A stretch of 64,000 bases of DNA from Candidatus Omnitrophota bacterium. GTDB lineage: Bacteria; Ratteibacteria; UBA8468; MWAK01. The stretch lies in assembly GCA_043797665.1 (NCBI GenBank), contig JAZDPL010000038.1, positions 26,940 through 90,939 of the forward strand, in the 5' to 3' direction. This document shows, piece after piece, positions 8,028 through 16,356 of this stretch. Made by a program: the position numbers and the translations under genes. The notes under the pieces were generated by a model, which worked only from the letters and a program-made list of their open reading frames with translations, did not search any database and was not told where the DNA came from. Each line of letters opens with the position of its first letter. Within the stretch, counting starts at the first letter, position 1.

Positions 8028-8777
8028 ATGGTGGGAGAGATGCTTGTCCTGACGCTGCTTACGACGACCAGCGTCCAGGATTGCGGTTTGCTGGACAAGA
8101 TTTTGCCGAAGTTTGAAAAAAAGTTTCAGTGCCAGGTCAGGGTGGTTGCGGTTGGCTCCGGCGCTGCCTTCCGGTTAGGTAAGGACGGACAGGGTGACAT
8201 CCTCCTGGTCCATGAACCGGAAGGTGAACAGAACTTCCTTCGGGAAGGTTACGGTACCAAAAGATATCCGGTGATGAGTAACGAATTTATTCTGGTGGGA
8301 CCGAAGGAAAAAGAATTCAAAAAAAAGAACGATTTAATGGAAATTTTACGAGAGATTTGCGATTCCCAATGGAGGTTCGTTTCCCGGGGGGATAATTCCG
8401 GTACCCACCGGAGAGAACTGCAACTCTGGAAGAAAGCCGGGGTCAAACCAAAAGACTCCTGCTACTTAGAAACGGGCCAGGGAATGATTGAAACCTTAAG
8501 GGTAGCCAACGAAAAAGGAGCGCTCGCCTTGACCGACAACGCTACTTTTTTCCGGCACCAGGATGAACTGAAAAATCTAAAGGTCTATTATATGGGAGGA
8601 CAGGAACTGATTAACCGATACAGTTTGATTCCCGTCTCTCCGGAAAAATTCCCCAAGGCTAATCATAAATTGGCTTTAAAACTGGTGGAATATTTCTTGA
8701 GTTCAGAGGTTCAAAATTATATCAAAACTTTCGGCAGTGAGTGGGGTTACCAAATCTTTAAACCCGGCGTAAAATGA
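8028..8777 (+). CDS. tupA: Tungstate/molybdate ABC transporter periplasmic substrate-binding protein (TupA/WtpA-like)
   Basis: PBP-fold binding protein of about 250 aa with an N-terminal hydrophobic segment. It resembles the TupA family and sits in the Moco/FDH context next to permease and ATPase genes (16353-17664). Its stop TGA overlaps the ATG of the island helicase (ATGA). Confidence 0.6.
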   Translation: MVGEMLVLTLLTTTSVQDCGLLDKILPKFEKKFQCQVRVVAVGSGAAFRLGKDGQGDILLVHEPEGEQNFLREGYGTKRYPVMSNEFILVGPKEKEFKKKNDLMEILREICDSQWRFVSRGDNSGTHRRELQLWKKAGVKPKDSCYLETGQGMIETLRVANEKGALALTDNATFFRHQDELKNLKVYYMGGQELINRYSLIPVSPEKFPKANHKLALKLVEYFLSSEVQNYIKTFGSEWGYQIFKPGVK

Positions 8778-11728
8778 ATAATGTTTTTTTGCAACGATAC
8801 CTAGCCGAAAAATTGACATTGAAAAGGATGGCGGGTAACATAAACCGTCTATCTTCAACCCTAGCCAAGGCTTCAATTCAACTAAATCCATATCAAATCC
8901 ATGCCGCAATGTACGCTTTCGATAGTCCGTTACAAAGAGGAGCAATATTATCGGATGAGGTAGGCTTAGGTAAAACTATTGAGGCGGGTATTGTACTTTC
9001 TCAATTATGGGCAGAAGGCAGACGTAAAATTATCATTATTTGCCCAGCTTCTATTAGAAAACAATGGCAAGACGAGATTTCGAACCATTTTGGATTAAAC
9101 TCCGAAGTAATAGACGGACCAATATTTGATGACAGAGTTAATTTAGGAGACAAAATTCCTTTGACCTATGAGGGTATTTTTATTGTTTCTCTTAATTTTG
9201 CGTATAAGAAAAAGGGATTAATAGAAAAACAACCTTGGAATTGTGTGGTAATAGATGAAGCGCACAGATTAAGAAATGTTTACAAAGGGAGAGATGCTTC
9301 CAAGATGGCCTGGGAAATACGCAATATTATTAAAGATAAAGGTAAACTACTTCTTACCGCCACACCTCTTCAAAATAACCTGATGGAACTATATGGAATT
9401 GCCAGTTTTATCGATGACAAATTACTTGGCACACCGTATAGTTTTAAGAAACGATTTGTTGATCCACTAACCGAGAACAACAGTCTTTCTCAAGCTAAAT
9501 TAAAGGAATTGCGCCTTCTTATAAAGGGTGAGGAGAAATTAAGTGGTGATAGGATTAGTGGTATTTTAACTCGAACATTAAGAAAGCAGGTAACCGATTA
9601 TGTAAGATTCACCGAAAGAAGGGCTTTTACTCAAGATTTTACTCCCACAGACGAAGAAATAGAGCTATACAATAAGGTTTCTGAATATTTACAGCGACCA
9701 GCACTTGCCGCAATCCAGGCAACCCAAAGAAACTTGATGATTTTAGTATATAGAAAATTATTGGCCAGTTCTTCTTTCGCCATTGCCGGTACATTAGAAC
9801 ATCTCATAAATTTTCTGCAAAGGGAATTAGAAATGCGCCAAACTGACAGGTTGAGTAAACAAACGCAGGCTGATTTATTTTCTCAATCTAAGCTTGAAGA
9901 TGAGGGGTTAGAGGAGGAAATTGAAGAAATTGATTCAGAGGATGTTGCAGAGAAGAAAGTAAGGGCACGAATTGACGAAGAGCTGTTTAGTGATGATGAT
10001 ATCCAGGACGAAATTGACGAACTCAAATCATATTATAATCTGGCGGTTAAAATAAAAGATAATTCAAAAGGTGAGGCTTTACTCAAAGCGTTAAAAACGA
10101 TATTTAAGATTGCGCAAGAGAAAAATTGGCCACAGAAAGCAGTTGTTTTTACAGAATCCAGAAGAACCCAGGAATACATCCGCCGTCTTTTTGAACGGGA
10201 GGGCATAAGTTATACAATCTTCAATGGTTCCAATGATTCCCGTGAAGCAAGTCAAGCATATAAGAGGTGGAGTAGGGAATTTCCCGAATCTGCAGAACAA
10301 GGCTCTCCAGCGACTAATATTCGTCAGGCTTTAGTGTGCGATTTTGAAAAAAGTAAACAAGTTCTTATATCTACTGAAGCCGGAGCAGAAGGATTAAACC
10401 TACAATTTTGCAATATTGTTATAAACTATGACTTGCCATGGAATCCTCAAAGAGTGGAACAGCGGATAGGACGATGCCATCGTTATGGTCAAAAATATGA
10501 TGTTTTGGCAGTCAACTTTTTAAATACAAAAAATAGGGCCGACCAGAGAGTATTGGAACTTTTACAATATAAGGTACATCTTTTTGATGGGCTTTTCGGC
10601 TCATCGGATGAGGTATTAGGCCTCCTTGAATCAGGTGTCAACTTTGAGAAAAAAATATTGGAAATTTACCAGACTTGCCGGACTTCTGAAGAAATAGATA
10701 TTGCTTTTGCCGAACTGCAGGAATCGATTCAATCTAAAATCGCTGATGAGATGCTGAGCGTACGGAAACAACTAACAGAATATTTTGATGAGCCGGTCAG
10801 GGAATTGTTTGAGCAGACAAAATTTGAAATTAATAAGAGCTTGTCAATATTTGACAGAGATTTATTGAGGCTGTGTAAACTTTTTTACGGTAAGAAATTA
10901 TCTAACTTGGATGATGAAGGGGCTTTGTACGGGTTTGCCGAAGGAACAATCAAGAAGATTTTAGCTTTTAGGGAACTAAAAAAGGACGAGACAGGAAAAT
11001 TCATCCGCGTGAATAATGAAAACCCAATAATTTCCACTGCAATAAACGAATCTTTAAAACTCAATACATCGCCCATTCCCGTGAATTATTTTCTTTATAC
11101 TGGGACTGATAGAAAATATACCCTGTTTGAACCATTCATTGGTAAAGAAGGCGTAATCTATCTTTTCAAATTAAAGGTTAACGGACTTGAAGAAGAAGAT
11201 ATATTGGCGCCGATGATGTTTATCAAGGAAGAAGGTGATTATAAATCTGTAAGTTTAGAAATCGCCGAAGAAATACTGTCCCTGGAGGCACAGGAACAAT
11301 CTCAAAAATTGGATACGTCACCTCTTGAGGAAGAAAGAGTTTTATTGACATGGGGAGAGTGGAAAAAGCAAGTATTGGAAAAATACCAACGCCGGAATGA
11401 ACGTCTATATGACCGAGAAGTAGACAGAATAAATCGTTATTATCAGGATTATAGTCTAAGGGTTGATGACAGAATAAAAAAATCTGAAGAAGAAAAGGAA
11501 GACCTGAACCGCAGGCGCGATAATTCGGCAGACCTTACAGAACGCAGAGAACTGCACAGGAAAATACAGGGAATGGAATTAAGATTAGACAGACTACACC
11601 TCGAACAGATAAAATTGAAGCAGGAAGCAAATCAACTCAAGCAGAGAGATTATGAAGAACTGGAGAATAAATTTGAGCTCAAAACTGAGGAAGAATTAAT
11701 CGCGGTTACATTATTTAAGGTGATTTGA
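8774..11728 (+). CDS. SNF2-family (Swi2/Snf2) helicase/translocase with C-terminal coiled-coil region
   Basis: Walker A LSDEVGLGKTIEA and DEAH-box VVIDEAHRLRN. Helicase-C motifs LISTEAGAEGLNLQ and YDLPWNPQRVEQRIGRCHRYGQ. C-terminal ~250 aa is rich in E/K/R heptad-like sequence. Confidence 0.8.
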   Translation: MNNVFLQRYLAEKLTLKRMAGNINRLSSTLAKASIQLNPYQIHAAMYAFDSPLQRGAILSDEVGLGKTIEAGIVLSQLWAEGRRKIIIICPASIRKQWQDEISNHFGLNSEVIDGPIFDDRVNLGDKIPLTYEGIFIVSLNFAYKKKGLIEKQPWNCVVIDEAHRLRNVYKGRDASKMAWEIRNIIKDKGKLLLTATPLQNNLMELYGIASFIDDKLLGTPYSFKKRFVDPLTENNSLSQAKLKELRLLIKGEEKLSGDRISGILTRTLRKQVTDYVRFTERRAFTQDFTPTDEEIELYNKVSEYLQRPALAAIQATQRNLMILVYRKLLASSSFAIAGTLEHLINFLQRELEMRQTDRLSKQTQADLFSQSKLEDEGLEEEIEEIDSEDVAEKKVRARIDEELFSDDDIQDEIDELKSYYNLAVKIKDNSKGEALLKALKTIFKIAQEKNWPQKAVVFTESRRTQEYIRRLFEREGISYTIFNGSNDSREASQAYKRWSREFPESAEQGSPATNIRQALVCDFEKSKQVLISTEAGAEGLNLQFCNIVINYDLPWNPQRVEQRIGRCHRYGQKYDVLAVNFLNTKNRADQRVLELLQYKVHLFDGLFGSSDEVLGLLESGVNFEKKILEIYQTCRTSEEIDIAFAELQESIQSKIADEMLSVRKQLTEYFDEPVRELFEQTKFEINKSLSIFDRDLLRLCKLFYGKKLSNLDDEGALYGFAEGTIKKILAFRELKKDETGKFIRVNNENPIISTAINESLKLNTSPIPVNYFLYTGTDRKYTLFEPFIGKEGVIYLFKLKVNGLEEEDILAPMMFIKEEGDYKSVSLEIAEEILSLEAQEQSQKLDTSPLEEERVLLTWGEWKKQVLEKYQRRNERLYDREVDRINRYYQDYSLRVDDRIKKSEEEKEDLNRRRDNSADLTERRELHRKIQGMELRLDRLHLEQIKLKQEANQLKQRDYEELENKFELKTEEELIAVTLFKVI

Positions 11729-11729
11729 C

Positions 11730-16135: not shown

Positions 16136-16140
16136 GAAAT

Positions 16141-16356
16141 ATGTCAAAATTCAAAGAGTTGAAATTTTCGAATCCTACCAAGGCAAGAGTTCCTCATTTA
16201 TGTAATAACTGTTCTAATGCGATAAATGTAGGAGATACCTATTATTCAGAGAAATTAAAAGATAGATTTCTCCACTCTTTGCATGAGAAAAAATTTTGTT
16301 CTGATTGCCATAATAAATTCGGTAAGAATTTAATGAGAGTAAATTACTCCTCATGA
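16141..16356 (+). CDS. Small Cys4 zinc-ribbon protein (71 aa)
   Basis: CNNC...(31 aa)...CSDC pattern. AT-rich like the island. Starts 5 nt after the nuclease-MTase gene, and its stop overlaps the tupB ATG (ATGA). Confidence 0.4.
   Translation: MSKFKELKFSNPTKARVPHLCNNCSNAINVGDTYYSEKLKDRFLHSLHEKKFCSDCHNKFGKNLMRVNYSS

Follow-up and report, generated by a model that had tools for sequence, protein, structure and literature searches.

Do the five adjacent genes found in a metagenome-assembled genome (MAG) of a Candidatus Omnitrophota bacterium encode one defence system, and has such a system already been described? This question was raised by a stretch of DNA of 64,000 nucleotides (hereafter, the window), in which the genes, here called A to E, lie on the plus strand at positions 8774–16356. 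An initial annotation, made from the sequence alone, had read them as a candidate novel restriction-defence system of five tightly coupled genes that resembled a Type ISP enzyme divided over several polypeptides. The five co-directional open reading frames (ORFs) were confirmed, and so were the domain calls, with Pfam and PADLOC profile searches for A to D: A (8774–11728, 984 aa) is an SNF2 protein, B (11730–13469, 579 aa) is a methyltransferase (MTase) with a target recognition domain (TRD), C (13469–14209, 246 aa, in an ORF that opens at a TTG codon at 13466) is a DUF3800 protein, D (14324–16135, 603 aa, with a GTG start) joins a nuclease to an MTase fold, and E (16141–16356, 71 aa) is a Cys4 zinc-ribbon protein of the pattern CxxC...CxxC. 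The nuclease, the SNF2 motor, the gamma-class MTase and the TRD are indeed carried by separate polypeptides (A, B, and D). In the public annotation of this MAG, A is named “SNF2-related protein,” B and D “N-6 DNA methylase” and C “DUF3800 domain-containing protein,” and E has no gene call. The analysis described here points to a smaller system than the one first proposed, built from A, B, and D.

The Conserved Unit in Related Loci

The gene neighborhoods were compared by means of three look-ups with precomputed Pfam annotation, 35 loci taken from one-genome-per-species contigs, and tblastn searches plus ORF clustering of all loci (designated by L and a number). Among approximately 30 related loci from many phyla, the unit that was kept was either A-B-D or, without A, a methylase gene (M) and a specificity gene (S) followed by D (M-S-D). 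The order A-B-D was found in 17 non-redundant loci, in which the homologues of A were full-length, shared 50–81% identity with it and lay directly upstream of B. The five-gene unit of the initial annotation was not supported by this comparison, since a DUF3800 gene was present in four loci and the zinc-ribbon gene in no other copy. As judged from these sequences, the conserved unit is a restriction-like and unnamed set of three genes, A-B-D, with C and E as add-ons. A, B, and D are the core components.

The carriers of the system belong to the Omnitrophota, Firestonebacteria, Nitrospirota, Nitrospinota, Planctomycetota, Actinomycetota, Elusimicrobia, Gammaproteobacteria and several phyla of the Candidate Phyla Radiation (CPR), and all of those found so far are uncultured organisms known as MAGs. 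A contig from a Methanosarcinales MAG (L023) carries an M-S-D fragment and is cut too near M to tell on A. Several copies of the system are located in defence islands, with SIR2-HerA, TIR, Schlafen/AlbA_2, AbiJ, and HEPN_AbiU2 genes as neighbors. The slot after D was found to be variable, being occupied by SIR2_2, a Macro domain, a weak sub-threshold HEPN-like match, the zinc ribbon or unknown proteins.

Genes encoding Schlafen/AlbA_2 and HATPase_c_4 domains recurred beside the system (L030, 296–1771; L032, 9053–9961; L005, 13837–15504; L018, 10491–12158; L078, 9149–10072). The Schlafen-type gene of L030 is inserted between a remnant of B and D, that is, at the junction that DUF3800 uses.

The Nuclease Subunit D and Its C-Terminal Tail

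The protein D matched Pfam N6_Mtase (2e-15) and, more weakly, HSDR_N (5e-5, residues 50–120), as well as Eco57I. Its N-terminal PD-(D/E)xK site is formed by D56 and E70-A-K72, and is followed by a helical linker and an MTase fold in which the S-adenosylmethionine (SAM) motif I, FECGSGGF, is intact. When 22 diverse homologues were aligned, D56, E70, D287, E289, G291, G293, G294, N363, P364, and G366 were invariant, and K72 and A365 were kept in at least 90% of them. The family is a large one, with at least 302 clusters of proteins of 530–610 aa from many phyla. The initial annotation had pointed out a degenerate catalytic motif, and motif IV is in fact non-canonical, NPAG instead of NPPY, the aromatic residue being missing in 22 of the 22 homologues. 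Gamma-class N6-adenine methylases use the aromatic residue of NPPY/F/W for stacking against the flipped-out adenine. Since NPAG lacks this adenine-stacking residue, D is not expected to methylate and is apparently a dead MTase. Furthermore, the near-complete conservation of NPAG among the homologues argues that it is a fixed trait of the family and not a recent decay.

An AlphaFold2 model of D was built on the homologue alignment, with a predicted local distance difference test score (pLDDT) of 77.5 and a predicted template modeling score (pTM) of 0.79. The model consists of the nuclease domain, the helical linker and a Rossmann-type MTase fold that ends in a long helix (residues 516–537), followed by a disordered region (residues 543–603). 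In a Foldseek search, the best match over the full length was the restriction–modification (RM) subunit of the Type IIB enzyme BsaXI (8w0p_A, 3.8e-17, 639 columns), followed by the Type IIG enzymes BpuSI and DrdV; HsdM-type methylases appeared at lower ranks and matched over the MTase part only. The same picture was obtained from a profile search of PDB sequences, BsaXI being once again the best match. No TRD was detected in D, which has no Methylase_S match and whose model ends in the helix and the disordered tail.

The tail (residues 543–603; 15950–16132, plus strand) was modeled with pLDDT below 50 and ends in a conserved motif, K(T/S)KISxxLxxLF. A tail of approximately 55 residues, in D proteins of 587–611 aa, was observed in all of the 18 loci where A is intact and D complete; this count was made by eye, and a regular expression missed some variants of the motif. 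The tail was absent from all eight loci without A that had upstream sequence, in a comparison uncorrected for phylogeny. The SNF2-less loci L011, L021, L025, L034, L035, L037, and L040 contain M-S-D, or a fused M·S gene and then D, and the short-form D proteins of SNF2-less loci (529–563 aa) end just after the conserved helix. This rule was checked as a prediction on L079 (14.5 kb), where a short D was accompanied by a fused B, with no SNF2 gene anywhere on the contig. The second short-form locus checked in this way, L078, was uninformative on A, its contig being cut 77 nt upstream of B. Two other loci were consistent with decay: in L018, A is reduced to a remnant of 293 aa and D has no tail, and in L027, D is truncated. 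Since the presence of the tail tracks that of the SNF2 gene, the tail is predicted to dock the motor and is most likely a peptide that binds A, as deduced from a co-occurrence that carries no correction for phylogeny.

A tailed D was also observed in L032 (5770–8682) without A or B, after a 970-aa protein and a truncated Schlafen-like gene. By eye, the 970-aa protein seems to join an N4/N6-type to a C5-type DNA methyltransferase, and L032 is probably a rearranged or decaying copy.

The Methyltransferase B and the SNF2 Protein A

The protein B matched Pfam N6_Mtase (2e-24) and Eco57I, with DPACGEG as motif I and NPPY as motif IV, and therefore looks like an active gamma-class N6-adenine MTase. 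It bears a single S-type TRD at residues ~321–579, recognized by the PADLOC model Specificity_I (4e-11 on residues 362–525) and by an NCBIfam MAD5 S-subunit match on residues 323–541. It also matched the PADLOC models MTase_II and MTase_I, and its best match in the PDB was the MTase domain of RM.BsaXI (5e-18). In the related loci, B is encoded either by one gene (580–730 aa) or by two, M (~310–380 aa) and S (~270–280 aa).

The three core proteins did not diverge alike. Across loci, sequence identity co-varied between A and D (Spearman 0.79), in a crude measure that takes the window copy as its single reference. With the same measure, the co-variation of the MTase half of B was weaker (0.51–0.56) and the TRD half showed none (−0.03 against A; also −0.29). 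The TRD half was also the most diverged part, with a mean identity to the window copy of 41%, against 52% for the MTase half. Since A and D co-vary and the TRD does not, the TRD shows the pattern that would be expected for a swappable specificity module.

With regard to A, the motor proved to be of the SNF2 type and not of the HsdR type, as had been claimed, with matches to Pfam SNF2-rel_dom (6e-34) and Helicase_C (3e-21) and with DrmD and BrxH as the best models. The motifs GLGKT, DEAH, and QRIGRCHRYGQ are intact in its translation. A scored 621 bits against the PADLOC model DrmD and 610 bits against the NCBIfam model DISARM_DrmD_b (NF038318), whose cut-off is 950, and 225 bits against the BrxHI/HII models. 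The alignment to NF038318 covers profile positions 10–650 of 868, leaving the C-terminal ~220 positions unmatched. The N-terminal 690 residues of A are DrmD/BrxHII-like and the C-terminal ~300 residues are family-specific. The motor belongs to the DrmD/BrxHII lineage, below the cut-off of the DrmD family.

The DUF3800 and Zinc-Ribbon Genes

The protein C matched Pfam DUF3800 (1.7e-17), and its N-terminal DE and C-terminal QxxD motifs are intact, with D8, E9, Q199, and D202 invariant. Neither C nor E had a match in PADLOC or NCBIfam, and PHROGs gave nothing useful for them. DUF3800 proteins have been described as RNase H-like and defence-associated, in type VII retrons and Cas12a2-linked loci (PMC7736814, PMC10910872). 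A search for homologues of C gave 706 matches, of which the best 120 were at 64–82% identity, nearly all of them 246 aa long and from very different phyla.

The window, L007, L009, and L016 are the only loci with a DUF3800 gene between B and D. Of the 17 A-B-D loci that are complete, 13 are without it, among them L008 with its 81%-identical A. The gap between B and D is an overlap or 0–22 nt where DUF3800 is absent, and the gap between DUF3800 and D is 115–255 nt where it is present. Solo copies of DUF3800 were found among housekeeping genes (L043, L044), and a metagenomic copy (L045) was flanked by the genes for portal and terminase in a phage-like gene cluster; a scan of viral contigs with the DUF3800 protein gave no confirmed match. 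In a Syntrophorhabdus MAG (L042, 3622–7741), the gene and its small RNA (described below) lie directly after the genes for a 670-aa HSDR_N_2-N6_Mtase-Eco57I protein and a full-size Methylase_S protein, and the stop of the S gene overlaps the DUF3800 start. This is a second case of the insertion right after an S/TRD gene, in a Type IIB-like system.

The tight coupling attributed to the five genes held for A and B (1 nt apart), B and C (overlapping), and D and E (5 nt), but not for C and D. These two genes are separated by a 114-nt spacer (14210–14323) that contains a strong 10-bp hairpin, a separate AGGAG Shine-Dalgarno sequence for D and a small RNA (sRNA) gene convergent with C. The sRNA gene lies on the minus strand at 14205–14290 (approximate ends). 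On that strand, it is preceded by a promoter-like site, with TTGACA at −35 (14323–14318) and TATCCT at −10 (14300–14295) at a spacing of 17 nt, and it ends in a putative Rho-independent terminator, formed by a stem (14240–14217) and a U-run over the stop codon of C. A promoter and terminator scan gave no more promoter-like matches than were found in shuffled sequences, and 13 terminator-like matches against 9.2 ± 3.3; of its output, the hairpin and the opposing TTGACA alone were taken further, because both are conserved across loci.

The RNA consists of a variable AT-rich 5′ part, a conserved 7-bp hairpin (GAUCGGG/CCCGGUC) and then the terminator. A box, GACACCCC(G/A)AT, was observed ~40 nt past the DUF3800 stop in all of the 31 genes with enough downstream sequence, in a set that includes 26 further metagenomic loci; the element is present in the window, L007, L009, L016, L042–L045, L052–L073, and L076. 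The −35 box is kept as TGTCAAG in most loci. RNAalifold detected compensatory changes in six pairs, five of them in the long terminator stem. In the hairpin, one U-G pair never varies, and two sequences have U-A in place of C-G through a double change. Standard pairs made up 96% of pair cells against 41–72% in slid controls, and the covariation score was reached by none of 500 shuffles. Approximately 26% of the pair cells were G-U, which would be C-A on the DUF3800 strand, and the RNA was therefore assigned to the opposite strand. The minimum free energy (MFE) of the window RNA was −34.8 kcal/mol on the minus strand (z −4.85) against −24.4 kcal/mol on the plus strand. A covariance model, R1, matched the window at 14198–14275 on the minus strand with 70.9 bits, and in 780 kb its matches were found solely beside DUF3800 genes. 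It also matched weakly beside a 26%-identical DUF3800 gene outside the training set (L036).

Eleven unrelated RNA motifs associated with DUF3800 genes (DUF3800-I to -XI) have been described previously, several of them with terminators and on either strand (PMC5737381, Weinberg et al., 2017). The window resembles these in having a DUF3800 gene with an adjoining structured RNA and a Rho-independent terminator, on the opposite strand as is also the case for some of them. It differs in that no Rfam 15 family was matched at E ≤ 1 in the window at 8000–17800, and in that the pair of genes is nested in a restriction-like operon. The window RNA may be a DUF3800-associated motif that is not in Rfam, or a further one, and the locus offers a clean example of DUF3800 with a convergent structured RNA for which promoter, terminator and strand can be predicted.

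The occurrence of solo homologues elsewhere, each time with an sRNA of their own, and the absence of DUF3800 from most A-B-D loci indicate that C and the sRNA are separate from the system: they appear to be an autonomous, two-part mobile cassette located at the B/D junction, and not a core component. This cassette could work as a toxin and RNA antitoxin or as a nuclease with an RNA partner. In the window, the −35 box of the sRNA overlaps the GTG start of D, and a transcript reading through from C to D would be complementary to the sRNA, so the cassette probably affects the expression of D. The single TGTCAAG copy of the window coincides with this GTG start. In L007 (~6090–6235) and L009 (~8440–8533), a second TGTCAAG(TG) was observed at the start codon of D, ~100–130 nt beyond the cassette's own, and this second copy may have arisen by promoter duplication or may reflect the target site of the cassette.

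The family of E comprises 79 representatives at E ≤ 1e-3, in which C21, C53, and C56 are invariant and C24 is kept in at least 90%, with the core KAR..H.C..C...I..G..YY.E...D.FL. Elsewhere, genes of this family follow a gene whose product weakly resembles PDDEXK_5 (L046) or one for an unknown protein of 248 aa (L047–49), or lie upstream of a GmrSD_N gene next to an Alw26I-type RM system (L050). No homologue of E was found in other copies of the system by tblastn or ORF clustering of all loci. E is a roaming small gene that occurs alongside nucleases, a facultative cargo in the slot after D and not a conserved component.

These results bear on whether all five proteins form one integrated system, with DUF3800 as a second, RNase H-like effector and the zinc ribbon as a required regulator or adaptor. 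In favor of this reading, all five genes run in the same direction within a single AT-rich block, and the B/D junction is where DUF3800 sits in each of four loci with D proteins no more than 52–71% identical. DUF3800 also follows the S gene in L042, and E-family genes adjoin nucleases elsewhere. Nevertheless, such an integrated system was considered unlikely, given the many A-B-D loci without DUF3800, the close homologues of C that stand alone with an sRNA of their own, the spacer with its opposing promoter and terminator between C and D, and the lack of a homologue of E in any other copy.

Comparison With Known Systems

No named system with this composition was found in PADLOC-DB 2023, NCBIfam 2026 or the searchable literature, whose coverage is incomplete; to that extent, the first impression that the gene set matches no described system is supported. 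For the M-S-D core, the closest known kind appears to be Type IIB (RM plus S) together with an additional, Eco57I-like methylase. The order of domains in D, an N-terminal PD-(D/E)xK nuclease followed by a gamma-MTase fold without a TRD, is that of the RM subunit of BsaXI. Recognition is supplied from outside D by an S-type TRD, either fused to B or separate, where BsaXI and BcgI have a separate S subunit. The M-S-D loci without SNF2 resemble a Type IIB-like system of three genes and fit its definition. On the other hand, motif IV of D is NPAG and not NPPY/F, so that by sequence a competent methylation motif is lacking, and a separate, active-looking MTase (B) is present. In addition, the S part has one TRD here and is often fused to B, and most loci add an SNF2 ATPase. 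Type IIB enzymes are not known to have an SNF2 ATPase.

The same four activities are present in Type I (EcoKI/EcoR124I) and Type ISP (LlaGI/LlaBIII) enzymes, and B resembles HsdM plus HsdS. The logic is likely to be the same by analogy, with methylation marking self and translocation coupling recognition to cleavage. In contrast to Type I, no HsdR joins nuclease and motor; the HSDR_N-type nuclease is on the MTase-fold protein D and the motor is separate. B scored 36 bits against TIGR00497 (hsdM), whose cut-off is 243, and its single TRD of ~260 residues differs from the two-TRD HsdS. In Type ISP, the activities reside on one polypeptide and not, as here, on three or four, and the motor is an SF2 helicase-like one of the Type I/ISP kind and not an SNF2 protein with DrmD and BrxH as best models. 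The likeness to Type ISP on which the initial annotation had relied was thus right as to the activities and can be taken only as a functional analogy, the nearest structural relative of D being the Type IIB BsaXI RM subunit.

Additionally, the locus was compared with the defence systems that contain SNF2 proteins. The initial annotation had set aside DISARM, BREX, and Type I, and the required partner genes or scores were indeed wanting for all three. BREX requires the PglZ phosphatase and the BrxC ATPase. It was rejected, as no PglZ or BrxC match was found with PADLOC or Pfam in the five proteins or their neighbors. For MADS, also rejected, the MAD2 model gave 121 and 78 bits against a cut-off of 720 and MAD5 gave 50 against 400, and no other MADS model matched. 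DISARM class 1 needs DrmA, DrmB (DUF1998), and DrmC (PLD), and PADLOC requires all five core genes (PMC9252829); DISARM was rejected because DrmA/B/C were not found beside the genes, in eight further large ORFs of the window searched with PADLOC, or in the Pfam-annotated related neighborhoods. ARMADA is characterized by the YprA-like helicase ArmC and, in type II, by the GajB-like ArmD (10.1101/2025.09.15.676423; 10.1101/2025.09.22.677730), and was rejected because no DEAD/DUF1998 or UvrD-like gene occurs in the locus or in related loci.

The locus might still be a variant or fragment of DISARM class 1, ARMADA or BREX-3, in which an SNF2-MTase sensing module is kept, D replaces the DrmABC or YprA effector, and the mechanism is DISARM-like. 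The scores of A are highest on the DrmD models, and an SNF2 gene directly followed by an adenine MTase gene is a pair common to DISARM-I, ARMADA and BREX (10.1101/2025.09.15.676423). However, A falls below the DrmD_b cut-off and is without the C-terminal positions of that model, and no DUF1998/YprA, PLD, PglZ or BrxC gene lies within 10 kb in the Pfam-annotated loci or among the eight further large ORFs of the window searched with PADLOC. B is a small Type I/IIB-like M+S enzyme with an S-type TRD, and not a large MTase of the PglX or DrmMI kind, and the effector is a PD-(D/E)xK nuclease on an MTase fold. Furthermore, the existence of SNF2-less M-S-D loci indicates that the MTase-nuclease pair can stand alone. 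An origin of this locus as such a variant was regarded as quite improbable.

An equally improbable alternative concerns D, which could be a self-sufficient Type IIG-like enzyme or a second active MTase, with A and B forming a separate module, for instance one for epigenetic regulation. Eco57I-type systems pair a stand-alone MTase with a nuclease-MTase fusion, and Pfam Eco57I matches both B and D; the SAM motif I of D is intact, and M-S-D occurs without A. R.Eco57I is itself equipped with a recognition domain and an active MTase. In contrast, D lacks both a TRD and a canonical motif IV, its tail tracks SNF2 perfectly, and A and D co-diverge.

The Genomic Setting

The five genes form an island of ~7.6 kb with a GC content of 0.35–0.38 (9–16 kb), against 0.45–0.50 on both flanks, so the AT-rich block first described was recovered. 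The initial annotation did not mention that the island interrupts an operon for a tungstate ABC transporter, precisely where tupA and tupB meet in a stop/start overlap (8774–8777, 16353–16356). On the left is a gene for a tupA-like tungstate-binding protein (8028–8777, plus strand; NCBIfam tung_bind_TupA, 8.5e-60; Pfam PBP_like_2). On the right are genes for a tupB-like permease (16353–17009, plus strand; NCBIfam ABC_perm1 and tung_perm_TupB) and an ABC ATPase in the tupC position (16993–17664, plus strand; ABC_tran). The TGA stop of tupA overlaps the ATG of A, and the TGA stop of E overlaps the ATG of tupB, giving ATGA at both junctions. The island contributes no upstream intergenic region of its own, and the expression of tupB and tupC would then require read-through of the island. 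On the basis of the drop in GC, the whole island appears to have been horizontally acquired and inserted inside tupABC. Flanking direct or inverted repeats and att-like sites at the island ends gave chance-level matches only; the one sequence common to both junctions, ATGAAT, is mostly accounted for by the two start codons.

That the locus is a MAG assembly artefact or a decaying, functionless remnant, as its metagenomic source and unusually neat junctions might suggest, is extremely improbable, since all ORFs are intact with their catalytic motifs, an independent 12.6-kb Joint Genome Institute (JGI) contig carries a near-identical member of the A cluster and an 83%-identical D, and dozens of independent assemblies have this gene order.

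Two other AT-rich stretches were observed in the window. The first (58980–61755, GC 0.34–0.39) contains a gene for an SLFN_AlbA_2/HATPase_c_4/Fic-like_C protein (58980–60410), 43 kb from the system, and one for an ORF6N-domain protein (60850–61755) that matched the PADLOC candidate system PDC-S05 (5e-66). Because of this last match, the stretch is probably another small defence islet. The second (29455–34594, minus strand, GC ~0.39–0.42) encodes proteins of 961 and 313 aa without a Pfam or PADLOC match and a CBM_4_9 protein, beside a DUF1559/prepilin-type protein, and looks unrelated to the defence system.

Discussion

The favored interpretation, held with moderate confidence, is that A, B, and D work together as a three-component, ATP-dependent, restriction-modification-like defence system. 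B would methylate adenines in the sequence read by its single TRD and so mark the host DNA as self, probably as a dimer equivalent to the M2S1 methylase of Type I. Since D has no TRD and a non-canonical motif IV, it would be unable to find DNA alone and would borrow the recognition module of B, or of M plus S. The joining surface could be its MTase-like body together with the C-terminal helix, in the way that the RM subunits of BsaXI join S, and its disordered tail would recruit the SNF2 motor. At an unmethylated site, A would translocate double-stranded DNA and the PD-(D/E)xK site of D would cut it. In functional terms, A as the motor and D as the nuclease would share out the work of a Type I HsdR, the nuclease being carried by an M-like scaffold. 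Without SNF2, the system would be expected to behave as Type IIB/IIG enzymes do.

Several observations weigh against this interpretation. D has an invariant Tyr six residues downstream of NPAG, and the NPAG loop is poorly modeled (pLDDT below 50 at residues 366–368); NPAG may yet support catalysis, in which case D could be a second active methylase. The SNF2-less loci on which the tail rule depends may represent only a few lineages. The pairing of SNF2 and MTase is common to DISARM-I, ARMADA, and BREX-3, whose mechanisms are not simple restriction. Finally, the recurrence of DUF3800 at one junction in four diverged loci, and after the S gene in L042, leaves room for a functional tie of DUF3800 to S-containing systems, beyond hitch-hiking.

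A broader proposal, put forward tentatively and with slightly less than even confidence, is that A-B-D represents a distinct and unnamed class of ATP-dependent restriction. In it, a Type IIB-like nuclease adaptor with a dead MTase would borrow the recognition of M plus S and recruit a DrmD-type SNF2 motor through a docking peptide, making it a living intermediate of Type IIB, Type I/ISP and the SNF2-MTase modules of DISARM, ARMADA, and BREX. More speculatively, DUF3800 and its sRNA might be an RNase H-like nuclease with its RNA partner, and this pair would have a recurrent target in the junction that follows S/TRD genes.

The components, the general logic and the presence of SNF2 proteins in several defence systems are familiar; the architecture, the forms with and without a motor, and the tail rule are new. 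If the interpretation of A-B-D is true, restriction systems can gain an ATP motor in a modular way, the same core existing with or without SNF2 and a tail of ~55 residues marking the difference, which would provide a simple rule for how a motor is recruited. This would also help to explain the SNF2-MTase pair in DISARM, ARMADA, and BREX. So far, the system is confined to uncultured lineages (Omnitrophota, CPR, Nitrospirota, and others), whose defence repertoires are poorly known.

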